Shown here piece by piece: positions 2,821 through 61,939 of a stretch of 64,000 nucleotides of DNA. Made by a program: the position numbers and the translations under genes. The stretch is taken from the NCBI GenBank assembly GCA_002070205.1, contig MWCU01000032.1, positions 15,123-79,122 on the forward strand, read 5' to 3'. The notes beneath the pieces were generated by a model. The model did no database searches and was not told the origin of the DNA. It was given only the letters and a program-made list of their open reading frames with translations. The first letter of the stretch is position 1; each line of letters begins with the position of its first letter. The stretch comes from Firmicutes bacterium ADurb.Bin182 (GTDB taxonomy: Bacteria; Bacillota; Clostridia; Christensenellales; CAG-138).

Positions 2821-3456
2821 ATGAAAATCGCGTTGATCAACGGAAGCCCAAGACACAAAGACAGCGCGTCCGCGGTTATTTTGCAGATGCTCAAACGGAT
2901 GCTCGCGGAAGAAAATGAGATTTTGGAGTTATACTGCGCAACCCCCGCATTTGCGGAGCATGATTTGAAGCAGATCACATCTTGCGACAGACTGGTATTC
3001 TCGTTCCCTTTATATGTTGACGCAATACCTTCCCATTTGCTCCGCTGCCTGTCACAGCTGGAAGAAGCGTATTCGGCAAAAGCGGGATCGAAGCCTGCCG
3101 TTTATGCGCTTGTGAACTGCGGATTCTACGAAGGGTCGCAAAACTCCGTCGCTTTGGATATCATAAAAAACTGGTGTCATAAAGCGGGTCCAACTTACGG
3201 CCAGGGGATCGGCATGGGCGGTGGGGGAATGCTGCTGGCTATATCCGGTGTACCTGATGACAAAGGCCCGAAAAGAATTGTTTATGAAGCGATAAAAACA
3301 ATGGCAAACAATATCTTAGCAGGCGCTTCGGCGGATAATCTGTTCGTGAGCCCGGGTTTCCCGAGATTTGCGTATAAGCTGTCGGCGGAATTCGGATGGC
3401 GCAAAGCAATTAAAGAGAACGGGTTGAAAGTAAAGGATTTATCCAGGAGAATGTAA
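2821..3456 (+). CDS. NAD(P)H-dependent oxidoreductase / flavodoxin family protein
   Basis: N-terminus MKIALINGSPRHKDS (GSPR FMN-reductase-type loop). 211 aa. Confidence 0.6.
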   Translation: MKIALINGSPRHKDSASAVILQMLKRMLAEENEILELYCATPAFAEHDLKQITSCDRLVFSFPLYVDAIPSHLLRCLSQLEEAYSAKAGSKPAVYALVNCGFYEGSQNSVALDIIKNWCHKAGPTYGQGIGMGGGGMLLAISGVPDDKGPKRIVYEAIKTMANNILAGASADNLFVSPGFPRFAYKLSAEFGWRKAIKENGLKVKDLSRRM

Positions 3457-13533: not shown

Positions 13534-14010
13534 ATGCAGCAGAAGACGAACGCGATGAGGGAGCTCGATTCGGCTAAGATAGCGTATACGGCTCACGAAT
13601 ACGATGTTTCGGACGGAGTTTTGGACGCGATCAGCGTTTCGTCAAAACTCGGGGCAAGTCCGGATATAGTTTTTAAAACGCTTGTCACGCAAGCGGAAAA
13701 CAATGAGATATTCGTGTTCGTGATACCCGGCAAGGATGAGCTCGATTTAAAGGTTGCGGCAAAAGCGGCGGGTAAGAAGCGCCTTGAAATGCTTGCGCAA
13801 AAGGAGCTTCTTTTAAAAACGGGGTATATCCACGGAGGATGTTCGCCTATCGGCATGAAGAAAAAATTCGTAACGTTTATCGATTCCTCGGCTTTGAAGC
13901 TTCCGCTCATATATGTGAGCGCGGGCAGACCGGGAGTCAACCTGTCGCTCGAGCCAAAGCGGCTCGCCGGATTTATCGGCGCGAAATTTGAACAACTGGT
14001 AAAGTGCTGA
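13534..14010 (+). CDS. ybaK: Cys-tRNA(Pro)/Cys-tRNA(Cys) deacylase, YbaK/EbsC family
   Basis: MQQKTNAMRELDSAKIAYTAHEYD... with the HGGCSPIG motif. The internal ATG at 13534 was chosen over the long ORF start at 13447. Confidence 0.7.
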   Translation: MQQKTNAMRELDSAKIAYTAHEYDVSDGVLDAISVSSKLGASPDIVFKTLVTQAENNEIFVFVIPGKDELDLKVAAKAAGKKRLEMLAQKELLLKTGYIHGGCSPIGMKKKFVTFIDSSALKLPLIYVSAGRPGVNLSLEPKRLAGFIGAKFEQLVKC

Positions 14011-14036
14011 TCAAGCTAAGTGAAAGGAAACCCTCA

Positions 14037-14900
14037 ATGAGCAACCGTCACCGCGCGACGCTGCAAATGCTCGCATGTGCCATGATGTGGAGCATATCGG
14101 GAATATTTATTAAAATGATCCCGTGGAATCCGCTTGTGATAGCAGGCTGGAGAAGCTTAATCGGCGGAGCGGTAATTTATATTTACATGCGCTTAAAACG
14201 GATACCGCTTATTATAAATCGCAAGTCCCTTCCGGGCGGAGTATTTCTGGCGCTCACGCTTTTGTGCTTTTTAACAACGAATAAAATGACTTCCCCGGCG
14301 AACGCGGTGGTGCTTCAATATACAGCGCCAATATTCATTCTCTTATTTTCCGCGCTGATTTTAAAGAAGAAATTCAGCCCGGCGGATTATGCCGTCGTGC
14401 TTCTGACGGTTATCGGAATCACCATGTTTTTTATCGACGGGCTGACCGCCGCGAACGCCGCGGGCAACGGCATAGGCATTTTATCCGGTATATTCTTCGC
14501 CGCCATGTTCATGACCACAAACGGCATCGACGAGAATACGCGCATGAACGCGTTGTTCATTGGTCAGATCCTGACGGCGGCAGTCGGAGTTCCGCTGACA
14601 TTCGCGTTCGACTCCCCGGCGTCCTTCGCGGCGCTGATGAGCCTTGCCGTGCTTGGCGTCGTTCAGTTGGGAATCCCCTATATACTTTACGGACTCGCGG
14701 TAAAATACTGCCCGCCGCTTTATATCTCGCTCCTCGCGTCCCTTGAGCCCCTTTTGAATCCGCTTTTGGTCTATATCTTTATGGGAGAAGCGCCGGGACC
14801 CTGGGCGCTGCTGGGCGGACTGCTCGTTGTCGCCACAATTGCCGCCTGGTATGTCTGGCAGGAGAGGAAGGCGGCTTCGCAATTAAGCCAATCGCGTTAG
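14037..14900 (+). CDS. DMT-superfamily (EamA-like) transporter
   Basis: About ten hydrophobic segments and an EamA-like N-terminus LACAMMWSISGIFIK. RBS GAAAGGAAA lies before the ATG at 14037. Confidence 0.7.
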   Translation: MSNRHRATLQMLACAMMWSISGIFIKMIPWNPLVIAGWRSLIGGAVIYIYMRLKRIPLIINRKSLPGGVFLALTLLCFLTTNKMTSPANAVVLQYTAPIFILLFSALILKKKFSPADYAVVLLTVIGITMFFIDGLTAANAAGNGIGILSGIFFAAMFMTTNGIDENTRMNALFIGQILTAAVGVPLTFAFDSPASFAALMSLAVLGVVQLGIPYILYGLAVKYCPPLYISLLASLEPLLNPLLVYIFMGEAPGPWALLGGLLVVATIAAWYVWQERKAASQLSQSR

Positions 14901-14921
14901 CGAATGGGTTAATTGCGAAGC

Positions 14922-15030
14922 AGTGGTTAGTGGCTAGTGGCGAGTGGTTAGTGGAGGAAAAATCTGCCTGAGGGCAGATTTAAATTAAATAATGGCCGGG
15001 ATAGTGGATAGTAGCTAGTGACTAGTGAAG
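14922..15030. repeat. Heptamer-array / hairpin element, copy A left half: 5x AGTGGNN, a hairpin, then a second AGTG array
   Basis: AGTGG starts at 14922, 14929, 14936, 14943 and 14950, an exact 7-nt register. The hairpin AAAAATCTGCC-tgag-GGCAGATTT is at 14958-14981. The second array is at 15001-15030. Confidence 0.8.
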
Positions 15031-15281
15031 GAAGAAACTGTCCGGAAATGGGCGGGCGATTCGTGAATCGCCCCTACATATAGATATGACATGTCAACAC
15101 AACATATTGTAGGAACTATCTGGGGCGTCTTGTTTTCTCCCTATAAGCATTAATCAAAGAAAAGGGACGCTTAAAGTGTCGTTCCGCATTTATATTTCCG
15201 GACAACCTCGAGGGCATCAACTTGCAAATTACTTACCACTGATCGCTTAATAAAAAACCGTTTACACCGAAACAATTAAAG

Positions 15282-15341
15282 GCATCTGCGTCAGCAGATG
15301 CTTCATTCACTAATCACTAACCACTGTCCACTATCCACTAA
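15282..15341. repeat. Heptamer-array / hairpin element, copy A right half: a hairpin then 5x inverted heptamers
   Basis: Hairpin GCATCTGC-gtca-GCAGATGC at 15282-15301. CACT starts at 15308, 15315, 15322, 15329 and 15336 (7-nt register). The last heptamer supplies the TAG stop of the minus-strand gene that ends at 15338. Confidence 0.8.
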
Positions 15342-16492
15342 TGCGAAAGCAATTTGAGCATACTCGCAAGGCCGATACCGAGATAATTTCCCACAGCGTA
15401 TCCGAAAACGCCGCAAATAAGCCCGGGGAGTATTACCTCCCTGTTTTTAAGCGCGTTCGCAACCGGCGGAATGAAAGCGGGCCCATATATGCCTGCCGTT
15501 GAGGTGATTAAGCTCGTGTGGCCGTCAATTCCGAACAGTCTGGAAAGAAGCAAATGCAAAAAAACGGAGCAGAACTGCACGAACAAAACCATCACGAGCA
15601 GCATCAGCGAGCCTTTTGATATAAGCGACAAATCAAACGAAAGCCCTATCGCGAACGAGAACATATAGATAAAGTATTGCCCCGCCGCATACGATCCCGG
15701 CGTTTCCCTGACCCGTTTAATAAACGAGAATGCAATGCCGCATGTCGTTACCACAAGCATTACCACCGCGACATTCAGTTCGCCGGTGAACAGGAGCGCA
15801 AGACCCGCCGCGATAAACAGGGAGAGGACGGAAAGAGCGAATACGGGGGCTCTCCTTAAAATCTCTTTGAAGCTGAACGATTGTTTTTTCGGAACGAACT
15901 CGCGCCGGATACTCTCCTCAAGCGATTCATCGCCGGAGCCGCCGCTTTTAAACGGCAGAAAGAACCGCCCGACAAGCCGCGGCATGACGGACAGTAGCAT
16001 CGCAAAATAAATGCCGCCCGCTACCATATCCGCCGTGTTCGCAAGAACTATATTCGTGTCCTTAACTCCGAGGGCCATTCCTATCGCCATTAAATTCGGC
16101 GTTCCGCCCGTATACAGCCCGACCAGCATGCCGCTTATGCTCGGCGCTTCATCGACGCTTGTGCGGAACAGGGCAAATCCCGCGAAGCTCGCGGCCAAAA
16201 CCGCGACTATCACAAGCATGAATGATATCGTGGTTGTTTTTGCAAGATATTTAAGCGACTTTAAATTGGCGCTGAAGAGAATGAGCGGGATCGCTATCGG
16301 AACGAGTATTTCCGCTGCCGACATAGCGATTTTCGTATCGCCGAAAACAAAACTCAAAAGGAATCCGCTCGCGTAGCATAAAAATACCGGCCCAAGAAAT
16401 GAAAAAAATTTGTACTTGCCGGACAGAAGGATCATGAGGCGGGGTATCAGTATGATCATGACAACAATGAGACCGTCTATAAGATATTGCAT
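15338..16492 (-). CDS. DUF819-family integral membrane protein
   Basis: Polytopic membrane protein. The MQYLIDGLIVVMIILIP... start at 16492 is preferred over 16540. Confidence 0.5.
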   Translation of the reverse strand: MQYLIDGLIVVMIILIPRLMILLSGKYKFFSFLGPVFLCYASGFLLSFVFGDTKIAMSAAEILVPIAIPLILFSANLKSLKYLAKTTTISFMLVIVAVLAASFAGFALFRTSVDEAPSISGMLVGLYTGGTPNLMAIGMALGVKDTNIVLANTADMVAGGIYFAMLLSVMPRLVGRFFLPFKSGGSGDESLEESIRREFVPKKQSFSFKEILRRAPVFALSVLSLFIAAGLALLFTGELNVAVVMLVVTTCGIAFSFIKRVRETPGSYAAGQYFIYMFSFAIGLSFDLSLISKGSLMLLVMVLFVQFCSVFLHLLLSRLFGIDGHTSLITSTAGIYGPAFIPPVANALKNREVILPGLICGVFGYAVGNYLGIGLASMLKLLSH

Positions 16493-16641
16493 TCTTTTCT
16501 CCAAAAATCGGGATTTGAGAATCAACGAAATAAAGATCAACTAAAGTATACCAGTTGACCAAATATGCGTCAAGTTTGATAGAACGAGACCCGCGTGCTA
16601 TAATATGTAAAATATCAAGCGAAAGATGTATGCGGCGTAAT

Positions 16642-17866: not shown

Positions 17867-18907
17867 ATGTACAGTTTCAGAAACGATTACAGCGAAGGGG
17901 CTCATCCGGACATTCTGGCTGAGCTTGTGAGAACCAATCTTGAACAGACCGTAGGTTACGGATGCGATGAGTACTGCGAAAGGGCAAAGGACGCCATACG
18001 GCGCGAGATCAATAACGAGAACGCGGCGGTGTATTTCATTTCCGGCGGCACTCAGACCAATCTCATTGCCATATCCTCCTTTTTAAGGCCGCATGAAGCA
18101 GTTATAGCGACAAGCTCCGGGCATATCAACGTGCACGAAACGGGCGCCATAGAGGCGACGGGTCACAAAGTGCTCACGGCGCAAGTTGAAAACGGGAAGC
18201 TGACTCCGGAGCTTATAAAGCCCATACTCGATTTTCATTGCGACGAGCATATGGTCAAGCCGCGCCTTGTTTATATTTCAAATTCCTCGGAGGTCGGCAC
18301 CGTTTATAATCGCGGCGAGCTTTCGGCACTCAGCCGGTTTTGCAAAGAGAACGGCCTTATGCTCTATATGGACGGCGCAAGAATCGGCTCCGCCCTGTGC
18401 TCGAAGCAAAACGACTTGACTATGGAGGAGATTGCCAAGCTTACGGACGCGTTCTATATCGGCGGCACCAAAAACGGATTGATGATGGGCGAAGCGCTGG
18501 TTCTCGTCAACGACTGCCTGAAGGCCGACTTTTTGTTCTTCGTGAAGCAGCGCGGAGCGCTTTTGGCAAAAGGAAGGCTGTTGGGCCTGCAATTTTTAAC
18601 GCTTTTCACCGACGGGCTGTTCTATAAAATCGCGTCGCACGAAAACCGGATGGCGGAGCTTTTAAAGGCAGGCCTTACTGAGCTTGGCGTTCCGTTTTTG
18701 ACGGACTCGCCCACGAATCAGCAATTCCCCATATTCGCGGATGATATCGCAGAAAAGATCAAGCTGAGCTATGATTACGAAATACAAAAGAAACTGCCTG
18801 ACGGACGCACCTGCATCCGCCTCGTAACATCCTGGGCAACGCCCGAATGGGCTGTCAATGAGTTTTTAAGGGATGTGGGGGAGATGCTTCGCATTAGTGG
18901 CGAGTGA
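17867..18907 (+). CDS. ltaE: Low-specificity L-threonine aldolase / beta-eliminating lyase family PLP enzyme
   Basis: MYSFRNDYSEGAHPDIL... and GGTQTNL are typical of threonine aldolases. 346 aa. The last four codons and the stop lie inside repeat copy B. Confidence 0.7.
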   Translation: MYSFRNDYSEGAHPDILAELVRTNLEQTVGYGCDEYCERAKDAIRREINNENAAVYFISGGTQTNLIAISSFLRPHEAVIATSSGHINVHETGAIEATGHKVLTAQVENGKLTPELIKPILDFHCDEHMVKPRLVYISNSSEVGTVYNRGELSALSRFCKENGLMLYMDGARIGSALCSKQNDLTMEEIAKLTDAFYIGGTKNGLMMGEALVLVNDCLKADFLFFVKQRGALLAKGRLLGLQFLTLFTDGLFYKIASHENRMAELLKAGLTELGVPFLTDSPTNQQFPIFADDIAEKIKLSYDYEIQKKLPDGRTCIRLVTSWATPEWAVNEFLRDVGEMLRISGE

Positions 18908-19090
18908 TTAGTGGCGAGTGACTAGTGAATGTGAAATTTGCTAAAGCAAATTTTCTTTAATTAATTTACGTCAACGGGTTTTTCCCGAACTGTCCACTAT
19001 CCACTGGTTACTGACCACTATTAAATTTTAAATCTGCCTTGGGCAGATTTTTCCTTCACTAACCACTCGCCACTAACCACTATCCACTGA
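18893..19090. repeat. Heptamer-array / hairpin element, copy B
   Basis: AGTGR at 18896, 18903, 18910, 18917 and 18924. Hairpin AAATTTGC-taaa-GCAAATTT at 18934-18953. An inverted CCACT array at 18989-19021. Hairpin AAATCTGCC-ttg-GGCAGATTT at 19030-19050. A second inverted array at 19055-19090. Confidence 0.8.
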
Positions 19091-19092
19091 GT

Positions 19093-19129
19093 AAAAAACC
19101 GGCTGTCCATTTCGGACAGCCGGTTTTTT
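19093..19129. terminator. Bidirectional intrinsic terminator
   Basis: A6, CCGGCTGTCC, atttc, GGACAGCCGG, T6. It sits between the convergent genes ending at 18907 (+) and 19132 (-). Confidence 0.8.
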
Positions 19130-19131
19130 AC

Positions 19132-20604
19132 TCACATGCTTTTCAATACTCCCGTTGCCTCGTTGAATTCCTCAATAAGCTTATCGATCTCTTTCGCTTG
19201 ATCGTGAATATCCTTCCAGTAATTATCGTCATACCACTGCGCGTTGAGCTCTTCGACACTTCTGCCCTGCTGCTCGACCCAGGTATAGTACTTGAGGTTA
19301 TGGATGCGCTTTCTCGCCGTATAAGTCAGCTCCTCCATGGTATCGGTCCGGATCCCGTGCATATGCTCAGCGTAATCCGCAGCGGCCTTAACGGGCGTAT
19401 ACTCTCCGTTCCTTTCCTCAAGCTCCCTGATGCGGCTTTGATACATTTCCGCGCTGTCCGTAAATACCGTGGCAACGATGTCGTTTTCGGTAAGCTCGTA
19501 GTATTTGGCCATCTTGATGCAGCAAAGCACGTTCGCGATCCCCGAAATGCCCATCAAAGGCAGCTTTTCGATGAAACCGGCCGGAACGCCGACTTCGTCC
19601 CTCAAATATGCCTGACCGACGGGATCGTTGAACAGGCGCAGGAGGTTTTGGCTGTCGTCATCATCGATTGCTATAACCATATCCGTATTTTTAACGTTGT
19701 GGATCCAGGGCACATGCTTGTCGCCTATGCCTTCAATTCTGTGCCCGCCGAAACCGTTGTTCAAAAGGGTGGGGCATTGCAGAGCTTCCCCGACCGCAAG
19801 CTTTGAATAAGGGAACTGTTCCTTTAAGAAATCTCCGGAGCTCATTGTGCCCGCGGAGCCCGAAGTGAAGCACGCGCCGAAGAATCTGCCGTTTTCGCCC
19901 ATTACGGACTTCACGGCGTCATAAATCGCCCTGCCGGTCACGTGGTAATGCCAAACGACGTTGCCCATCTCTTCAAACTGGTTAAATATGACCACGTCTT
20001 CACGAGTGTTGCGAAGCTCCCAGGTTTTATCGAATATCTCCTTCACATTGCTCTCGCAGCCGGGCGTCGCGATGACTTCTCCCGCGATTTTTGAAAGCCA
20101 TTCAAAGCGCTCGCGGCTCATTTCCGCGGGAAGGATGGCTATTGAATCGCATGAGAGGAGCTTGGAGTTATAGGCTCCGCCCCTGCAGTAATTGCCCGTT
20201 GACGGCCATACCGCTTTATGATATGTGGGATCGAACTGACCGGTCACAAGCCGCGGGGCAAGGCAGCCGAAAGAGGCCCCCACTTTATGGCAGCCGGTAG
20301 GGAACCATTTGCCCGTAAGCGCTATGATGCGCGCCTTAACGCCGGAAAGCTGCCCCGGGATTTCGATGAAGTTGGGACCGCCGAAACCGCCGCCGTTCAT
20401 TTTCGGCTCGTTGCGCCAGGTGATCCTGAACAGATTCAAAGGATCGATATCCCACAGGCCCGTTTTCTTCAAGCCCTGCTTTATCTTATCCGGTATCAGA
20501 TTCGGATCGCTCATCTGTGCGAAAGTGGGAATAACGATTTTGTTTTCACGCGCCCTTTTTATTGTGCGCTGCAGTTTTTCGCGATTTACAGTCAAATCAA
20601 TCAT
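19132..20604 (-). CDS. Fold-type II (Trp-synthase-beta-like) PLP-dependent enzyme, long form; specific function unknown
   Basis: 490 aa. Contains CHKVGASFG (candidate PLP lysine) and glycine-rich segments. The assignment is by general resemblance only. Confidence 0.4.
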   Translation of the reverse strand: MIDLTVNREKLQRTIKRARENKIVIPTFAQMSDPNLIPDKIKQGLKKTGLWDIDPLNLFRITWRNEPKMNGGGFGGPNFIEIPGQLSGVKARIIALTGKWFPTGCHKVGASFGCLAPRLVTGQFDPTYHKAVWPSTGNYCRGGAYNSKLLSCDSIAILPAEMSRERFEWLSKIAGEVIATPGCESNVKEIFDKTWELRNTREDVVIFNQFEEMGNVVWHYHVTGRAIYDAVKSVMGENGRFFGACFTSGSAGTMSSGDFLKEQFPYSKLAVGEALQCPTLLNNGFGGHRIEGIGDKHVPWIHNVKNTDMVIAIDDDDSQNLLRLFNDPVGQAYLRDEVGVPAGFIEKLPLMGISGIANVLCCIKMAKYYELTENDIVATVFTDSAEMYQSRIRELEERNGEYTPVKAAADYAEHMHGIRTDTMEELTYTARKRIHNLKYYTWVEQQGRSVEELNAQWYDDNYWKDIHDQAKEIDKLIEEFNEATGVLKSM

Positions 20605-39609: not shown

Positions 39610-40467
39610 TCAACTGCCGCTTATGACATCATAAATCCTGAGTAAATCTTCACCGGAATAGTATTCTATCACGATCTTGCCTTTTTTCTCATTGCCCTGA
39701 ATGCTTACGCGGGTGCCGAACCTTTCCCGAAAATGCTCCTGCACGTCAAGCAGCTCGGGCTGCAGGCCGGGTTTGAGCTTCTCTTTTTTTTCCGTCTGCC
39801 GCTCGTTTATCCGCCGGACCAATGCCTCCAGCTCCCTGACCGATAAAGACTTTTTTATCGCCTCCGAAGCAAGCTTTAATTGAGATTCCTCATCCTTGAC
39901 TGAAACTATAGCTCTCGCCTGACCCGCGGAAAGCTTGCCTTCGCGGACCATCTTCTGAACGGGACCCGCAAGAGATAAAAGACGCAGCGCGTTTGCAATA
40001 GCGGGCCGGCTTTTGCCGAGCCTGTCCGACATCTCCTCCTGCGTTATGTCGTATTCCTTTATAAGCGCCCGGATAGCCAATGCTTCTTCCATCGGGTTCA
40101 AATCCTCGCGCTGTATGTTCTCAATCAAAGCGACCTCGTTGATGCGCTCTTCATCGATGTCCTTCAATACCACCGGGACCTTGCTCAATCCCGCCATCCG
40201 GGCCGCGCGGTAGCGGCGCTCCCCGGCAATTATCGAGTATCTCGCGCCGTTTTGCCTTACGACTATGGGCTGAATGATTCCGTGCTGCTTGATCGATTCC
40301 GCAAGCTCCTGGAGTTTTTCTTCGTCAAAATCCAATCTCGGCTGATTCAGATTCGTATCCAAAAGCAGTATATCCGCTTCGTATACGCCGGCTTGCGTTT
40401 CAGGTGAGGCGGAATAATCTCCTATCAAGGCGTCCAGCCCTTTCCCCAGACCCTTTTTAACTTGCAT
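39610..40467 (-). CDS. spo0J: Chromosome partitioning protein ParB/Spo0J
   Basis: KGLGKGLDALI N-terminus, the ParB box GERRYRAA, and an HTH region. Confidence 0.9.
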   Translation of the reverse strand: MQVKKGLGKGLDALIGDYSASPETQAGVYEADILLLDTNLNQPRLDFDEEKLQELAESIKQHGIIQPIVVRQNGARYSIIAGERRYRAARMAGLSKVPVVLKDIDEERINEVALIENIQREDLNPMEEALAIRALIKEYDITQEEMSDRLGKSRPAIANALRLLSLAGPVQKMVREGKLSAGQARAIVSVKDEESQLKLASEAIKKSLSVRELEALVRRINERQTEKKEKLKPGLQPELLDVQEHFRERFGTRVSIQGNEKKGKIVIEYYSGEDLLRIYDVISGS

Positions 40468-41233
40468 TTGTTTCTTCCTTCCTGATCAGTTCCCCGGCAA
40501 GCTCGACATATGCAAGAGCCCCCGCCGATTTTGCATCGTATAGCGTGATTGGAAGCCCGAAGCTGGGCGCTTCACCCAAACGGACGCTCCTCGGAATGAT
40601 CGTGTTATAAACCTTATGCTTAAAATACTTCTTGACCTCCGCAACGACCTGCGTCGAGAGGTTTGTCCTTGCATCGAACATAGTCAGAACCACGCCCTCC
40701 ACGCTCAGCTGAGTATTAAGCCGCCTTTGCACCAGATGAACGGTATCCATCAGCTGGCTGAGCCCCTCCAGAGCGTAATATTCGCATTGAATGGGAACAA
40801 GCAGCGTATCCGCGCAGGTGAGCGCGTTGATGGTCAAAAGGCCGAGGGACGGAGGACAATCTATAAAAATATAATCATATTCGCTTTTTATTGAGCTTAA
40901 AGCGTTTTTTAAGACATGCTCGCGGGCAATCTCAGATACAAGCTCCACTTCCGCGCCCGCCAAATCGATTTTGGAGCATATACAGTATAATCCCGGCACT
41001 TTCGTTTTCAGCACCGCATCTTTTGCGTCGATATGATTTATCAATACGTCATAAACCGAGTATTCGGCGGTTTCCTTATCCAAACCGAGTCCGCTGGTGC
41101 AGTTTCCCTGCGGATCAAAATCAACGGTAAGAACCTTTTTCCCGGCCTGTGCCGCACAGGCGCTGAGGTTAACGGTTGTGGTCGTTTTTCCTACACCGCC
41201 CTTCTGGTTTGCGATCGCGATGATTTTAGCCAC
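40457..41233 (-). CDS. soj: Chromosome partitioning ATPase ParA/Soj
   Basis: Deviant Walker A IAIANQKGGVGKTTT. The GTG at 41233, preceded by GGAGGAAG, is preferred over 41266. Confidence 0.9.
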   Translation of the reverse strand: MAKIIAIANQKGGVGKTTTTVNLSACAAQAGKKVLTVDFDPQGNCTSGLGLDKETAEYSVYDVLINHIDAKDAVLKTKVPGLYCICSKIDLAGAEVELVSEIAREHVLKNALSSIKSEYDYIFIDCPPSLGLLTINALTCADTLLVPIQCEYYALEGLSQLMDTVHLVQRRLNTQLSVEGVVLTMFDARTNLSTQVVAEVKKYFKHKVYNTIIPRSVRLGEAPSFGLPITLYDAKSAGALAYVELAGELIRKEETNAS

Positions 41234-41299
41234 GGATACTTCCTCCAACAACTTTATCTTTTTCAATTATACGGTAAATTCAAAGTTTTAACAATGGAA

Positions 41300-41521
41300 A
41301 ATAAGTAATCAGCAATAAGTTGTGAGTAATAAGTTAAGGAAAATCCGCTTGAAGCGGATTTACTGATTAAACAATACGCAATAATATTACTCTATATAAT
41401 GTTTCACGTGAAACATATCGCAAGGCCGGTAATTAGTTGTAAGTCCATTCTTAAATCAGCAAATCCGCATCAGCAGATTTTACATAAACTGTCAACTTAT
41501 TACTCATAACTCAATACTGCC
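41300..41521. repeat. Two tandem copies of a sequence-diverged heptamer-array / hairpin element (copy C)
   Basis: NAGT/NAGC at 41303, 41310, 41317, 41324 and 41331 (7-nt register). Hairpin AAATCCGC-ttga-GCGGATTT at 41341-41360, then an inverted arm to about 41392. The second unit spans 41430-41521 with its hairpin at 41461-41480. The 18-mer GCAGATTTTACATAAACT (41473-41490) is identical to 61859-61876. Confidence 0.7.
41400..41415. promoter_or_regulatory. parS: parS centromere-like site
   Basis: Perfect palindrome TGTTTCACGTGAAACA, one mismatch from the Firmicute parS consensus TGTTCCACGTGAAACA (equivalent to TGTTNCACGTGAAACA). It lies 167 bp upstream of soj. Confidence 0.85.
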
Positions 41522-41526
41522 GCTAT

Positions 41527-41542
41527 TGTTTCACGTGAAACA
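41527..41542. promoter_or_regulatory. parS: parS centromere-like site (second copy)
   Basis: The identical 16-mer TGTTTCACGTGAAACA, 127 bp from the first. Confidence 0.85.
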
Positions 41543-43531: not shown

Positions 43532-43548
43532 TTTCATCGGAAAGACAA

Positions 43549-43695
43549 CCCGCTGGGGGTGCCGAAAGGCTGAGAAATACACCCTTGGAACCTGTGAAGT
43601 TAGTACTTGCGTAGGGAAGCGGAAGCATGAAGGACCAATGTAATCAGCACATGTTTTCGTTTTCCCGTACCCCGAAGGGGTGCGGGTTTTCTTTT
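43549..43695 (+). promoter_or_regulatory. TPP (THI-box) riboswitch with a terminator expression platform
   Basis: CGCTGGGGGTGCC..GGCTGAGA..ACCCTTGGAACCTG..GCGTAGGGAAGCG matches the THI element core. It is followed by CCCGTACCCC-gaag-GGGTGCGGG and TTTTCTTTT (43664-43695). Confidence 0.85.
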
Positions 43696-43861: not shown

Positions 43862-44515
43862 ATGGAATTTACGCTGATTTCCGAATTTAAAGATCTCGGA
43901 CTCCTTACATGGATCTGCCTCGGTACGGCGCTGATAATGACGGCCGTGCTCATATCCGTGCTCGCCCGGAGCAAGAAGGCGGGGGAGCCGCCCGATGAAA
44001 TCAAAAAAAGCGCGACGCGCGCACTCGTATACGGCGCGTTGTGCGTCGCGCTTTCCTTCCTGTTATCCTATATCAAACTGTTTTCGATGCCTCAGGGCGG
44101 TTCCATTACCCTCGCAAGCGTACTGCCTCTGGCACTTTACGCATACCGGTTCGGGCCGAAATACGGAATAATAGCGGGCATGGCGGCGGGCGTGCTTCAA
44201 TTCATACAGCAGCCCGAAGTGTATCATCCCGTTCAGCCGTTTCTCGATTATGTCCTTGCCTTCGGATGCTTCGGCCTTGCCGGATATTTCAGAAGAAGCC
44301 TGCCTTTGGGGCTTATTGTGGGCGGCATAGGAAGGATCCTTTTTTCAACGCTTTCCGGCGGACTTTTCTTCTATATGTACGCGCCGGAAGGAATGAACCC
44401 GTGGATATATTCGGTGGCATATAATACCGTCGTGCTGGGTCCCGACGTGCTTTTATGCGCGTTCATCGCAGTTCTGCCGCCCGTAAAGAAGCTTATGGAT
44501 AACATAATGAAATAA
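43862..44515 (+). CDS. thiT: ThiT-family thiamine transporter (ECF S-component)
   Basis: Six-TM protein with IKLFSMPQGGSITLASVLPL. It lies downstream of the TPP riboswitch. Confidence 0.7.
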   Translation: MEFTLISEFKDLGLLTWICLGTALIMTAVLISVLARSKKAGEPPDEIKKSATRALVYGALCVALSFLLSYIKLFSMPQGGSITLASVLPLALYAYRFGPKYGIIAGMAAGVLQFIQQPEVYHPVQPFLDYVLAFGCFGLAGYFRRSLPLGLIVGGIGRILFSTLSGGLFFYMYAPEGMNPWIYSVAYNTVVLGPDVLLCAFIAVLPPVKKLMDNIMK

Positions 44516-48349: not shown

Positions 48350-48585
48350 AACAATTACCTCGCTTTCACAGCTTATATTTTGGCAAAACCTGAATGACGG
48401 CCTATCTATTATATTACGAGGTCAATGCCCGGTCCCGGATATTTAAGAACAGTCAATATAAGCGGTCGGCCGTCCCGGGATTTATTCGGTTTAAAAACAA
48501 ACCGCCCGCATATCGGGCACCGTCATGCTTCGCTCCCTGAAAAAACTGCGGGGGCGGCGTCAAAGTAAAACCGGCGATTTCCCGG

Positions 48586-48795
48586 TTAAGGAACAGGATC
48601 AAAACCTCCCCTGAAGAAGGGATTGCACCTCAAGATACGCTTGAAAGCCAACCAGGAGCCCTTTGCTGCGCCATACTTTTCAATTGCTTCCGCGGCATAC
48701 TGCGAACAGGTCGGCTGATATATGCAGCTTGGCGGCAGCAAAGGAGAGATGTATCTTTGGTATCCATGAATGATACCCGTCAAAAGGTGCTTCAC
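48586..48795 (-). CDS. yidD: Membrane protein insertion efficiency factor YidD
   Basis: [22 protein letters not shown]...RILRCNPF signature. Confidence 0.85.
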
Positions 48796-48798
48796 GGC

Positions 48799-49143
48799 TC
48801 AATCTTCCTTCTTCAAAAGGTTCGCTTTGCGCAAAAGCTCGCGCACAGAATTTTTGATATTTTCGAATTCTTCATGCACAACCGGCTCTCGAGCTATAAG
48901 TATAATATTGTATCCGCTTTTCACGATCGGAATCATCGGGCGGAAAGATTCCCTCAGCCGACGTTTGACGCGGTTGCGCACAACGCTGTTTCCGATTTTT
49001 TTGCTGACCGTAATACCTACATGAAGCTTGTTCGTGTTGTTTCTCGTGAACAGCAGCACCATCAGCCTGCTGCTTTCCGACTTTCCGGCACGGTATACGT
49101 ACCTGAATTCTTTGTTTCGTTTTAACGAATAACAGCGTTTCAC
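48799..49143 (-). CDS. rnpA: RNase P protein component
   Basis: LKRNKEFRYVY...GITVSKKIGNSVVRNRVKRRLRE (RNR motif). It lies immediately downstream of rpmH. Confidence 0.85.
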   Translation of the reverse strand: MKRCYSLKRNKEFRYVYRAGKSESSRLMVLLFTRNNTNKLHVGITVSKKIGNSVVRNRVKRRLRESFRPMIPIVKSGYNIILIAREPVVHEEFENIKNSVRELLRKANLLKKED

Positions 49144-49222
49144 TTCGTTTTTCCAGCGAAAACCTTATTTTTTTCCCGCGCGGACACAGGCGGGGCGGCA
49201 CATACCGATTATGCCGTGACGA

Positions 49223-49357
49223 CTAAGCGCTCAGTTTCTTGCGGCCTTTCAAGCGCCTGCGCGCGAGGACGTGCTTGCCGCTCAGAGTCTTCATGCGTTT
49301 TCTGAAGCCGTGCACCTTTTTTCTTTGTCTTTTCTTCGGCTGATACGTATTGAGCAT
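49223..49357 (-). CDS. rpmH: 50S ribosomal protein L34
   Basis: Hand translation gives [44 protein letters not shown] (44 aa). RBS GAGGTG. It is below the ORF-track size cutoff. Confidence 0.9.
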
Positions 49358-49430
49358 TGTTTTTCACCTCTTCTCTTATTGACTTCACCCGGGGGTTTTC
49401 CCCAGAGCACTTTTGTGCTGTCAATTGTTT

Positions 49431-49460
49431 ATTATAATTGAATCTCAAATCAAATGTCAA
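49431..49460 (-). promoter_or_regulatory. Putative sigma-A promoter of the rpmH-rnpA operon
   Basis: On the minus strand: TTGACA (49455-49460), 18-nt spacer, TATAAT (49431-49436). Confidence 0.5.
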
Positions 49461-49590
49461 GAAATACGGGCTTTTTACAGCTCCCGGATGCACCCGTGCG
49501 ATTTAGTTTTATATTATTTTCAATTGTATTAAACTACATATTTTGATATGATGTGTATAAACTATTCAATATTTCGCCGGGGGTCAAAAA

Positions 49591-50907
49591 ATGGCAAACG
49601 CGCAAGCGGTCTGGGAGCGCTCGCTGGACACTCTCAAACAGGAAATGACTCAATTGAGCTTCAATTCATGGATCAAGGATATCGTTCCGGTGGTCATCAG
49701 GGACGAAGTTTTGGTCCTGCAGGCACAAAGCGAGTTTTACTGCAGCACTCTCAATAACCTGTACTTAAAGTCTATTGTGGACGCCGTAAATGCCTCTAAC
49801 GGAACAAATTACAGCATAAAAATTATTTCGCCGGAGGAAAGGATCCATTATATCGCGCCAAAACCAAAAAAAATCGAGCCGGGATTCTTTCTTAACCCGA
49901 GATACACATTCGAGACATTTGTTATAGGCAGCTCAAATAATTTCGCCCACGCGGCATCGCTCGCGGTCGCCAAGAATCCCGCAAAAGCGTACAATCCGCT
50001 TTTTATATACGGAGGAGTCGGACTCGGAAAAACGCATCTCATGCATGCCATAGGCCACAGCATTTTGGAAAACAACGCTCATTCGAATATTCTTTACGTA
50101 ACGAGCGAAACTTTTCTCAACGAACTGATAGAGTCAATCAGGGAGAACAAAAACGCTCTTTTCAGGGCGCGTTACCGCAATGTGGATGTCCTTCTGGTCG
50201 ACGATATTCAGTTCATAGTCGGCAAAGAAAGCATGCAGGAGGAATTTTTCCACACATTCAACGCGCTCCATGTAGCCGGTAAACAAATCGTTATAAGTTC
50301 CGACAGGCCTCCGAAGGAAATACCGACCCTTGAGGAAAGGCTCAGGTCCAGGTTCGAATGGGGGCTTATTGTGGATATACAGCCTCCGGACCTCGAAACG
50401 CGCATAGCCATATTGAGAAAAAAAGCAATGATCGATAATCTTGACGTCAGCGATTCGGTGCTTCAGTATATCGCGGGGAAAGTTCAGTCCAACATAAGGG
50501 AGCTTGAAGGTTCGCTTACGAGGGTAATGGCATATGCGATACTGGAAAAGCGTCCCGTGGATATAAATCTTGCGGACACTGCATTAAAGGATATACTTCC
50601 CGAATTCGCTCCGAGGAAAATTACTCCCGAATTGATCAAGGAAGTCGTGGCGGATTATTACTCAATAGCTTATTCGGACATGTCATCAAAGAGAAAGGAC
50701 CGCAATATGGCCTATCCGAGGCAGATAGCCATGTATCTCTGCCGGACTATGACGGATATCCCATTAAAGCAAATCGGTTCCCTGTTCGGCGGCAGAGATC
50801 ACGCGACCGTCAAATACGCATGCGATAAAATCGCTTCAGATATTGAAAGCGACAGAGAGCTGGCGGTAAGCATCGACGACATGATAAAGCGGATAAAAAA
50901 TGACTGA
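49591..50907 (+). CDS. dnaA: Chromosomal replication initiator DnaA
   Basis: AAA+ Walker A GGVGLGKTHL, LLVDDIQF, and the C-terminal DnaA signature RQIAMYLCR...GGRDHATV. Confidence 0.95.
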   Translation: MANAQAVWERSLDTLKQEMTQLSFNSWIKDIVPVVIRDEVLVLQAQSEFYCSTLNNLYLKSIVDAVNASNGTNYSIKIISPEERIHYIAPKPKKIEPGFFLNPRYTFETFVIGSSNNFAHAASLAVAKNPAKAYNPLFIYGGVGLGKTHLMHAIGHSILENNAHSNILYVTSETFLNELIESIRENKNALFRARYRNVDVLLVDDIQFIVGKESMQEEFFHTFNALHVAGKQIVISSDRPPKEIPTLEERLRSRFEWGLIVDIQPPDLETRIAILRKKAMIDNLDVSDSVLQYIAGKVQSNIRELEGSLTRVMAYAILEKRPVDINLADTALKDILPEFAPRKITPELIKEVVADYYSIAYSDMSSKRKDRNMAYPRQIAMYLCRTMTDIPLKQIGSLFGGRDHATVKYACDKIASDIESDRELAVSIDDMIKRIKND

Positions 50908-60773: not shown

Positions 60774-61799
60774 GTGAGTCTCGCCCTGCAAGTCAAAAAA
60801 TTCATTAACTCGGAGCATACAGGCGCTTTTATTGAAATCGAGCTGCCGAAAGATATCGACATCCCCCGTGAAAGGGTCAAGAAAACGGTTGTCAAAGAAG
60901 ATGCGCGCCGGGAAGACATCGAGTCTGTTCCCGGTGATGCCGAACCCGCCGAGGGCGCTTTTCAAAGCGAGGGCCAAACCGAAGAGGCGCCTGCCATAAA
61001 GGGGGACGCTGAAACCGTCAGGTTCCATTATATGGAGGCTGGAAGCGGCGAGCCTCTGATTCTTGTGCATACTATAGGGCAGTCCCTTTATACATGGAGA
61101 AATGTATTTTTCCGGCTCAGCGAACATTACAGGGTAATCGCCGTAGATCTTTTGGGGCACGGCTATTCCGACAGACCGAGGAATTTTGATTATACCATTT
61201 CTGCGCATTCGGCTTCGCTTATCAATTTTATGGATGCGATGGGGATCGAAAGCGCGCACTTCATCGGTTTTTCTATGGGCTCTATGTATGTGCTGGATCT
61301 CGTAGAGAAGCATCCGGAAAGGGCCGGCAAGGTAATTCTGATTTCCCCCGGAGGATTGACTCCTCAAATGCCGCTTGCTGTGCGAATGCTGGACAGTTCT
61401 TTGTTCGGAGGCCTCGCCAGCGTGCTTTATTCATTGAGGACCGTTGAGAATATATTGGAGGAGTGCTTCTTTGACTTGACTTCAATAACGCCCGAAGTCG
61501 TTCAAGAATACTACGTGCCCGCGTCCGACGGCGAAGCAAGGCGCTCCATCAGGCGCTCCCTCAACCGTTTTTATCAGGATGACGTCATATCGAGGCTGAG
61601 AGAAGTTATGAACGGCGTTTTGATACTGTGGGCCGCGGATGATAAATGGCATCATATAGAAATCGGTGATTTCTTCCATGCGGCGCTCCCCAGTTCGCAG
61701 CTTGCCGTAATCAGAAACGCCGGGCATCTCGTCCATGAGGAAAAACCTGAAAAGCTGATCACGTCCGTTATGGAATTCATACCGGCGGTGGGGGAATGA
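60774..61799 (+). CDS. Alpha/beta-fold hydrolase
   Basis: LILVHTIGQS (oxyanion region), the nucleophile elbow GFSMGS, and a C-terminal GHLVHEEKPE. GTG start with an AGGAGG RBS. Confidence 0.75.
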   Translation: MSLALQVKKFINSEHTGAFIEIELPKDIDIPRERVKKTVVKEDARREDIESVPGDAEPAEGAFQSEGQTEEAPAIKGDAETVRFHYMEAGSGEPLILVHTIGQSLYTWRNVFFRLSEHYRVIAVDLLGHGYSDRPRNFDYTISAHSASLINFMDAMGIESAHFIGFSMGSMYVLDLVEKHPERAGKVILISPGGLTPQMPLAVRMLDSSLFGGLASVLYSLRTVENILEECFFDLTSITPEVVQEYYVPASDGEARRSIRRSLNRFYQDDVISRLREVMNGVLILWAADDKWHHIEIGDFFHAALPSSQLAVIRNAGHLVHEEKPEKLITSVMEFIPAVGE

Positions 61800-61807
61800 A
61801 AAGTTAA

Positions 61808-61907
61808 AGTGGTAAGTGGTTAGTGGCGAGTGAACAGTGAACGAAAAATCTGCCGTCGGCAGATTTTACATAAACTAACCACTAATCACTAACCACTAAA
61901 CACTAAT
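61808..61907. repeat. Heptamer-array / hairpin element, minimal copy D
   Basis: AGTGR at 61808, 61815, 61822, 61829 and 61836. Hairpin AAAATCTGCC-gtc-GGCAGATTTT at 61845-61867. NACT/CACT at 61873, 61880, 61887, 61894 and 61901. Confidence 0.8.
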
Positions 61908-61910
61908 AAC

Positions 61911-61939
61911 AAAAAAAGAGCCGTTTCCGGCTCTTTTTT
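61911..61939. terminator. Bidirectional intrinsic terminator
   Basis: A7, GAGCCG, tttc, CGGCTC, T6. It sits between convergent genes. Confidence 0.8.

Follow-up and report, generated by a model that had tools for sequence, protein, structure and literature searches.

Dispersed heptamer-array foldback elements near the probable replication origin of a Clostridia genome, likely gene-less relatives of S23p (PF05635) cassettes

The stretch analysed here, 64,000 nucleotides of contig MWCU01000032.1 of Firmicutes bacterium ADurb.Bin182 (the window), carries between its protein-coding genes four loci, A to D, in which tandem arrays of a 7-nt unit face arrays of its reverse complement across small hairpins. 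A first-pass annotation, made from the letters alone, had described them as four copies of one architecture, with exactly five heptamers, a hairpin and five inverted heptamers. All four loci exist and D, the 100-bp form, is as described, while A, B and C are more complex than first stated, and the count of five holds for nine of the ten arms. Their parts, and the two strong terminators that lie beside them, are as follows:

14922-14956, plus strand: arm A-L, units AGTGGTT AGTGGCT AGTGGCG AGTGGTT AGTGGAG, beginning 21 nt past the stop of an EamA-family gene (14004-14900)
14960-14981: hairpin A1, AAATCTGCC-TGAG-GGCAGATTT, -12 kcal/mol
15003-15030, plus strand: arm A-L2, units AGTGGAT AGTAGCT AGTGACT AGTGAAG, the sole arm of four instead of five
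15031-15281: insert of locus A, 250 bp, unique, its edges forming the inverted repeat CTGTCCGGAAAT/ATTTCCGGACA
15282-15301: hairpin A2, GCATCTGC-GTCA-GCAGATGC, its outer pairs with compensatory changes
15309-15343, minus strand: arm A-R, reading on that strand AGTGGAT AGTGGAC AGTGGTT AGTGATT AGTGAAT and overlapping the stop of a DUF819 gene (15338-16540, minus)
18896-18930, plus strand: arm B-L, five heptamers, the stop of a beta-eliminating-lyase-family gene (17867-18907) falling within the second unit
18934-18953: hairpin B1, AAATTTGC-TAAA-GCAAATTT, a C-G pair replaced by T-A (compensatory)
18989-19023, minus strand: arm B-R1, five heptamers, with a divergent small hairpin, CGGG-AAAAA-CCCG, as its inner junction
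19030-19050: hairpin B2, AAATCTGCC-TTG-GGCAGATTT
19058-19092, minus strand: arm B-R2, five heptamers, the same as arm A-L at 17 of 20 variable positions
19089-19133: neighbour of B, outside the repeat, a strong canonical bidirectional terminator before the gene at 19132-20604 (minus)
41304-41338, plus strand: arm C-L, units AGTAATC AGCAATA AGTTGTG AGTAATA AGTTAAG, a short way upstream of the promoter and start (41266) of parA
41341-41361: hairpin C1, AAATCCGC-TTGA-AGCGGATTT, a T-A pair replaced by C-G (compensatory)
41362-41460: interior of element C, with a perfect parS site, TGTTTCACGTGAAACA, at 41400-41415
41461-41480: hairpin C2, AAATCCGC-ATCA-GCAGATTT, followed by TTACATAAACT, a junction also found in D
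41488-41522, minus strand: arm C-R, five heptamers of the AGTAATA class, pairing well only with C-L
61808-61842, plus strand: arm D-L, units AGTGGTA AGTGGTT AGTGGCG AGTGAAC AGTGAAC, beginning 8 nt past the stop of an alpha/beta-hydrolase gene (60774-61799)
61846-61866: hairpin D, AAATCTGCC-GTC-GGCAGATTT, common to both arms, -12 kcal/mol
61874-61908, minus strand: arm D-R, five heptamers
61912-61939: neighbour of D, outside the repeat, a strong canonical bidirectional terminator before the pyruvate:ferredoxin oxidoreductase (PFOR) gene (61947 onward, minus)

Oriented alike, the ten arms fit one register, in which AGT-phased heptamers are followed by G[AT]RAAA and then by the hairpin; the AG that starts each unit is invariant (A-L2 being without the outermost unit), and the T next to it is present in all but one. 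The basic module, about 60-65 nt long, consists of five such heptamers, a purine-rich, Shine-Dalgarno-like junction (G[AT]RAAA) and a small hairpin with A and T runs, and modules are set head to head with their hairpins turned inwards and their arrays outwards. In D a single hairpin is common to both modules, whereas A, B and C enclose other DNA: locus A has three arms, two hairpins and the insert, locus B three arms and two hairpins, and locus C, built from a second heptamer class (AGTAATA type), two hairpins 100 bp apart with the parS site between them. These are dispersed, modular, gene-less elements of one family. With no more than one mismatch allowed, the pattern (AGTGRNN)x2+AGTGR matches 21 times in the window against none in 100 shuffles, and period-7 windows number 46 against none in 20 shuffles; hairpins of the AAATCYGC...GCRGATTT type occur seven times in the 64 kb, each time within one of the four loci, and their pairing is kept through compensatory changes (ATCTGC/GCAGAT, ATTTGC/GCAAAT, ATCCGC/GCGGAT, GCATCTGC/GCAGATGC). 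Every unit holds a UAG or GAG (NAG) triplet, five to an arm, with 4-nt spacers, and the AGTGGNN and AGTAATA units are free of GGG runs and thus of the G-tracts of G-quadruplexes. No further copy of the module lies in the 4.5 kb downstream or the 3.9 kb upstream of the window, and an Rfam scan of the window returned no family at the four loci and no rRNA; its sole match was a thiamine pyrophosphate (TPP) riboswitch (RF00059, 58 bits) at 43545-43634 (plus strand), upstream of the gene at 43862-44515. The insert of locus A has no relative in the sequences compared and holds no remnant of a PF05635 gene; within it lies the palindrome GGGCGATTC-GTG-GAATCGCCC, of which a near-identical 24-nt version is found in contig L114, one of the sequences fetched from other genomes.

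The first-pass annotation had also allowed that the two arms might pair and extend the hairpin into a long stem, and this fits what we find: duplexes between partner arms reach -25 to -41 kcal/mol, and the two strands of element D fold at -59.5 and -65.2 kcal/mol (z = -10.5 and -11.7). Within an element the arms are always of one heptamer class, and the arms of C pair well only with each other (-25 kcal/mol versus -6 to -15 kcal/mol with other arms). The order of the heptamer variants is kept between loci (identity sum 231 versus 209.6 +/- 6.8 when permuted; 22/5000), and arms of different loci, such as A-L and B-R2, can resemble each other more than partner arms do, partners being no more alike than non-partners; together these facts indicate that whole modules of about 60 nt were copied and did not grow in place. 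In two relatives, whose proteins share 72-73% of their amino acids with those of the window, the orthologous spacer between the hydrolase and PFOR genes holds ordinary terminators only, so that D represents a lineage-specific gain or loss.

The same architecture is widespread. A scan for (AGTGRNN)x4, with one genome per species, found at least 120 loci in many phyla, the matches listed including Planctomycetota, Acidobacteriota (Pyrinomonadaceae), Cyanobacteria, Verrucomicrobiota, Bacteroidota, Chloroflexota, the candidate phyla radiation (CPR) and Bacillota. Among these listed matches, AGTG lies 5' of CACT in 19 close array pairs and the opposite order occurs in none, a strict polarity that a pure stem function does not predict. 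A generic period-7 search of the fetched loci gave 59 gene-less inverted pairs with a median spacer of 38 nt, in which the modal arm has five units (45 of 117 arms, with four units in another 35). Metagenomes contain a sister family with the same succession of array, junction and hairpin ((AGTGGAA)n, AGTTAAG, GAAAAA, ACTGC-loop-GCAGT, T-run), both as single modules and as five-plus-five pairs. A scan of viral contigs with the module pattern gave no match, and a BLAST search of plasmids and phages with copy D returned only plain direct arrays of CACTAAC or CACTAAT, which are different in architecture. One of these, CACTAAC x27 in a Pseudoalteromonas megaplasmid (L176, 2490-2680), and another, CACTAAT x9 in a Bernardetia plasmid (L177, 2480-2545), are intergenic and have no inverted partner, the latter ending about 5 nt before the next called start. 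Gene-less inverted pairs can also be clustered, two to four of them in L079 (Plectonema radiosum), L120, L132 and L135; in L079 (6391-6716) three five-plus-five pairs follow one another in tandem with a period of 126 nt (starts 6391, 6517 and 6643).

Among the long simple repeats of bacteria, those of 7 nt are the most frequent, and earlier surveys, as cited by MacGregor (PMC4679880), found heptanucleotide repeats to be abundant. One could therefore see in these loci ordinary intergenic hairpins or terminators joined to heptamer microsatellites grown by replication slippage, with no dedicated function or mobility; the plain long arrays of Pseudoalteromonas and Bernardetia agree with this, as do changes of unit number in 7-nt steps between strains at related loci. 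However, non-identical units number exactly five in nine of the ten arms and keep their order between loci, array and hairpin stand in a fixed register, one orientation is strictly kept (19 to 0 among the matches listed), and across phyla five is the commonest number of units in an arm. None of these features would be expected from local slippage, and we regard this explanation as quite unlikely.

What most informs the identity of these elements is the company that such arrays keep elsewhere. PF05635 is the family of S23p, the 23S-rRNA intervening-sequence protein, a "four helix bundle" of the Avd-like kind that also includes the retroelement protein Avd. A Ruminococcus contig (L060) holds a 122-amino-acid gene between AGTGGTT and CACTAAC arrays; the gene product matches Pfam 23S_rRNA_IVP (PF05635, E = 1e-42) and bAvd-like, and a Planctomycete locus has a PF05635 gene in the same layout. 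In 20 non-redundant loci that were fetched through the PF05635 protein, and are hence unbiased as to repeats, a period-7 array lies at most 200 nt upstream of the gene in 13, against about 6% expected from the local background, and in 8 of the 20 a reverse-complement array follows directly downstream as well; several more loci have weaker arrays or other periods, as judged by eye. The cassette so defined (forward heptamer array, PF05635 gene, reverse-complement array) is built on heptamers as varied as AGTGGTT, AGTGGGA, TAGGGTG, ATTGGGA, AGTAGGG, GTTGGCT, AACGTTG, GTAGTCT and GGGCTTG, so that the period of 7 is general and the NAG motif is not. Clostridial cassettes, those nearest to the Ruminococcus protein among them, use the heptamers of the window: AGTGGTT/AGTGATN in L060, L137 and L138, with five units in the last two, and (AGTAATA)6-8, the class of locus C, in L166-L175. 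Closely related PF05635 proteins (76% identical) use either AGTGGTT or AGTAATA, and one contig can hold several heptamer families. The Ruminococcus-like contig L178 carries, 7 kb from an S23p cassette, two near-identical elements of about 100 bp (2487-2585 and 3140-3247) that lack an open reading frame (ORF), each made of five AGNGAAT units and five inverted ones around a conserved 30-nt core. In Xanthomonas the S23p gene (orthologue of XCC0516, the crystallised pentamer), inserted between accB and accC, lies between an upstream array GGGAATC GGGAGTG GAGAATC GGGAATC GGCAAAG (1129-1163) and a downstream array CCCATTC CCCATTC CCGACTC CCTATTC CC (1540-1575), both seen in L184 and L188. The family is very large, with more than 7,000 matches at E<1e-20 among only 8,000 scored candidates, and its structural homologues 2GSC and 2RLD in the PDB have five chains each.

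Two observations on individual cassettes deserve to be recorded. In L166-L175 (about 1440-1490) the called end of the upstream FtsK gene shifts between 1424 and 1441 from strain to strain, mostly in 7-nt steps. In three viral contigs (L137, 3-2483; L138, 79-1614; L139, 3-2477) the PF05635 gene and its heptamer arrays are nested in the ORF of an Eco57I-type (NPPY) methyltransferase; the nested gene uses another frame, and the methyltransferase frame stays open across the whole cassette of about 430 nt in these three diverged homologues, much as though an "intervening sequence" had been overprinted within a protein-coding gene.

With the gene-bearing form in view, the elements of the window may be compared with mobile repeats of the classical kinds, that is, a miniature inverted-repeat transposable element (MITE) or a repetitive extragenic palindrome (REP, or REPIN for its paired form) moved from elsewhere by a transposase or by a REP-associated tyrosine transposase (RAYT), the arrays being its terminal inverted repeats. 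Small size, intergenic sites and inverted ends would suit such an element, and so would the difference in presence between relatives and the composite and nested forms of A and B. Nevertheless, target-site duplication is not evident at the four loci, the hairpins are flanked by heptamer arrays and have no GTAG or CGTC tag next to them, and in about 60 pairs no transposase-like ORF lies between the arms, the only gene found there being PF05635; this origin seems to us very unlikely.

The first-pass annotation recognised no described type in these elements, a statement that does not stand, as convergent heptamer pairs have been published (PMC4692102, PMC2700814) and heptamers combined with terminal inverted repeats are known from the Coxiella intervening sequence (PMC4990558). 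By the account of Warrier et al. (2016, PMC4990558), the S23p ORF in the 23S intervening sequence (IVS) of Coxiella is preceded by tandem GACAGAT heptamers (2-3 units in the cassette) whose number varies between strains, the IVS ends in a 28-bp stem that is cut by RNase III, such sequences are regarded as selfish and horizontally acquired, and the S23p of Xanthomonas is a toroidal homopentamer. The elements of the window resemble the 23S IVS of Coxiella burnetii and Leptospira in having terminal inverted repeats capable of forming a long stem and arms built of heptamers, and in our analysis the forward-array/ORF/reverse-array layout of the IVS recurs at most PF05635 genes outside rRNA. They differ from it in that they have no ORF, lie outside rRNA, carry a small A/T-flanked hairpin in the place of the gene and are multicopy, with ten arms in 64 kb.

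Three other groups of repeats come close. (i) In Xanthomonas, GGGAATC forms 186 dispersed intergenic arrays, mostly of four units, among them 70-75 convergent pairs; they lie on average 28 nt behind the upstream ORF, most are transcribed, and they were read as G-quadruplex formers (Rehm et al. 2015, PMC4692102). As in the window, the tandem arrays are close together on opposite strands, convergent, intergenic and near the 3' ends of genes; unlike them, the window units have no G-tracts, and a central hairpin is not among the features described for Xanthomonas in the relevant passages of that paper. The heptamer published there is the one that flanks the Xanthomonas S23p gene, a link that those passages do not mention; a term search of the paper (PMC4692102) gave no match to 'S23'. 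(ii) The "class 3 global regulator binding sites" of Geobacter metallireducens form eight pairs on opposite strands, with five tandem heptamers (MTYCTGA) at 15 of the 16 sites and with one pair, Gmet_I301A/B, intergenic and about 100 bp apart, and were read as IHF/HU-type DNA sites of an unidentified global regulator (Aklujkar et al. 2009, PMC2700814). They share with the window the five-heptamer arrays paired on opposite strands, and differ in heptamer sequence and in that the description of these sites reports no hairpin core. (iii) Elhai is said to have described, in 2008, small hairpin repeats that lie within heptamer arrays in Nostoc. Heptamer direct repeats (TAACTGA, short tandemly repeated repetitive sequences or STRR) occur in Beggiatoaceae, Cyanobacteria and Bacteroidetes, and a factor binding them has been postulated (MacGregor 2015, PMC4679880), as it has, likewise unidentified, in a Nostoc preprint. 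TAACTGA is the reverse complement of TCAGTTA, which contains AGT as the window units do, and in both cases the heptamers are tandem and intergenic; the STRR arrays, however, are mostly single, direct and just upstream of start codons, whereas those of the window are five-plus-five and inverted around a hairpin. For the heptamer repeats of Xanthomonas, Geobacter, Nostoc and Beggiatoaceae, the pertinent parts of the published accounts identify no binding protein.

The position of the four loci bears on what they might do. All are flanked by protein-coding genes, none lying within helix 25 or 45 of 23S rRNA: A, B and D occupy three of the approximately seven convergent junctions of the window, and C lies between typA and the parA promoter. 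Four arms (A-L, D-L, B-L and A-R) overlap a stop codon or begin at most 21 nt from one, and arms B-R2 and D-R are 38-39 nt from a stop codon, with the neighbouring terminator in between. The small hairpins had been taken for terminator-like structures, a notion that finds no support, since a simple terminator test is passed by only one of the seven (A2, on the minus strand) and separate strong terminators adjoin B and D; because these bidirectional terminators follow the elements, the whole element at B and at D is predicted to lie within the 3' untranslated region (UTR) of the plus-strand gene. The named homologues of the hydrolase beside D come from Clostridia, Christensenellaceae and Eubacteriales. 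A motif, GCTT(T)CGCA(A)TT, stands immediately before arms A-R and B-L (15344-15357 and 18886-18895), and at A-L (14870-14921) it supplies the two halves of a hairpin (gcttcgcaattaa...ttaattgcgaagc) whose span includes the EamA-family stop codon. This motif could belong to the element as an outer portion, or mark a context in which insertion is preferred.

This setting also bears on the protein partner first proposed, a ring-shaped antiterminator of the HutP or TRAP kind that would bind the NAG triplets recurring every 7 nt and modulate termination at the adjoining hairpin. HutP targets have NAG triplets in a 3+3 arrangement with 4-nt spacers, and TRAP targets 9-11 triplets with 2-3-nt spacers. 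UAG or GAG triplets with 4-nt spacers in every unit, a hairpin with A and T tracts after each array and an organism belonging to Bacillota all suit the proposal, and the spacing does fit HutP, although five units per arm agree with neither protein. Against it stand the location of the elements downstream of genes or between convergent genes and not in 5' leaders, the failure of all small hairpins except one in the terminator test next to the separate strong terminators of B and D, and the occurrence of the design in Planctomycetota, Acidobacteriota, Cyanobacteria and CPR, in phyla without HutP and TRAP, and on heptamers without NAG (AACGTTG, GGGCTTG, ATTGGGA). A tblastn search of the 64-kb window for HutP, TRAP and omega, with query sequences that may be inexact, gave only noise. 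Of the explanations weighed here we give this one the slimmest chance. Binding by an oligomeric protein in a more general sense stays plausible, a pentameric S23p/PF05635 protein being the better candidate.

Locus C lies next to parAB. Two perfect parS sites (TGTTTCACGTGAAACA, at 41400-41415 and 41527-41542, with 0.04 matches predicted from shuffles) are found just upstream of parA (40457-41266, minus) and parB (39610-40467, minus), one of them inside element C and the other 5 nt beyond arm C-R. A non-coding gap of 1.2 kb (48350-49590) precedes dnaA (49591-50907), which is followed by dnaN, recF, gyrB and gyrA; this gap is the probable oriC region, which would place all four loci within about 35 kb of the origin. 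Such surroundings could suggest double-stranded DNA sites for a cooperative binder, of the omega ribbon-helix-helix or IHF/HU type, acting in nucleoid organisation or global regulation near the origin. The omega protein of pSM19035 has operators of 7-10 WATCACW heptads in promoter regions, converging heptads being its preferred arrangement. The unit AGTGATT, as the reverse complement of AATCACT, fits this heptad, the convergent layout is the one that omega prefers, locus C brackets parS beside parAB in a window that spans the dnaA region, and the five-heptamer pairs of Geobacter were annotated as global-regulator sites (PMC2700814). Yet most units are AGTGGNN and mismatch the omega core, which only the AGTGATT units match; the tblastn search of the window, with its possibly inexact query, found no omega-like gene; three of the four loci are placed at the 3' ends of genes and not near promoters, C being a possible exception; a 7-bp repeat is out of helix phase for most binders; and the link to PF05635 cassettes and to an IVS cut by RNase III points to RNA. 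We consider that the loci are unlikely to be DNA sites of this kind.

In architecture, polarity, arm length and unit types the family in the window agrees with the arrays found on either side of PF05635 genes. On these grounds we think it reasonably probable that the four loci are gene-less foldback relatives of the S23p/PF05635 cassettes, dispersed "heptamer-array foldback" elements that would be to the cassettes what an ORF-less form is to one with its gene. Several points weigh against this kinship: (i) no PF05635 gene was found in the window, by jackhmmer on all ORFs of at least 40 amino acids, or in 8 kb of additional contig; (ii) among the matches listed, a PF05635 gene adjoins only 2 of the 120 AGTG-array loci; (iii) PF05635 cassettes lack the small A/T-flanked hairpin, which leaves an origin by simple deletion of the ORF unsupported; (iv) in S23p cassettes (L166-L175 and L178-L183) the number of units varies between strains in exact 7-nt steps, with 6, 7 or 8 units in the forward array and 4 to 16 in the reverse array, and with the 2-3 units of Coxiella added, the five of the window may reflect common descent and not constraint; (v) the arm-arm covariation that the first-pass annotation proposed to look for exists at the level of heptamer class (C with C), and none is partner-specific within the AGTGG class; (vi) partner duplexes are no better than duplexes between non-partners of the same class, so that selection for the long stem is unsupported; and (vii) no consistent target-site duplication was seen at the four loci, nor was a transposase found.

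If the kinship holds, a plausible life of such an element can be outlined. Transcripts of the flanking convergent genes would carry the element in their 3' UTR, and the two arrays would zip into a long interrupted stem with the small hairpin as a cap; owing to the period of 7 nt several pairing registers would be available, and units could be gained or lost by slippage while the stem stays intact. Pairing of the arms at -25 to -41 kcal/mol within 3' UTRs suggests substrates for RNase III, of the kind cut in the 23S IVS of Coxiella and Leptospira, and this cutting would process or stabilise the 3' end of the transcript. Copies would have spread from a common master copy of five units, with gains and losses between related genomes, and the heptamers may serve as recognition units for a protein acting in trans, for which the best candidate would be an S23p homopentamer encoded elsewhere in the genome.

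A further and more daring step, which we put forward tentatively and hold to be doubtful, is that S23p proteins are themselves the heptamer-repeat-binding factors. A homopentamer bound to RNA or DNA in single-stranded form would read about five 7-nt units, in every case those of the purine-rich 5' arm, and the S23p gene, placed between its own arrays, would maintain, regulate or spread hundreds of gene-less pairs as RAYT does with REPINs; the assignment of one heptamer to each subunit is speculative. The analogy with REP/REPIN and RAYT lies in a single-copy gene between inverted short repeats that are also dispersed without the gene, a description that fits S23p and GGGAATC in Xanthomonas. Unlike RAYT, S23p is a small four-helix-bundle protein, in which we know of no nuclease motif, and the repeats are tandem heptamers and not tagged palindromes. 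If true, this reading would explain with one protein family the elements of the window, the GGGAATC pairs of Xanthomonas, the class 3 sites of Geobacter and the 23S intervening sequences, and possibly also the orphan heptamer repeats of Cyanobacteria and Beggiatoaceae.

Taken together, the architecture described here has been seen before and remained unexplained, and the chief value of the four loci is as a pointer to S23p/PF05635 as the partner of heptamer repeats. Should this link fail, they are still a clean example of widespread and poorly described 3'-UTR foldback repeats that annotators would do well to recognise. Should it hold, PF05635, a family of unassigned function, would gain a ligand for the S23p/Avd fold, the form of the 23S intervening sequences would be explained, and bacteria would provide a new pairing of a gene with its own gene-less repeats.

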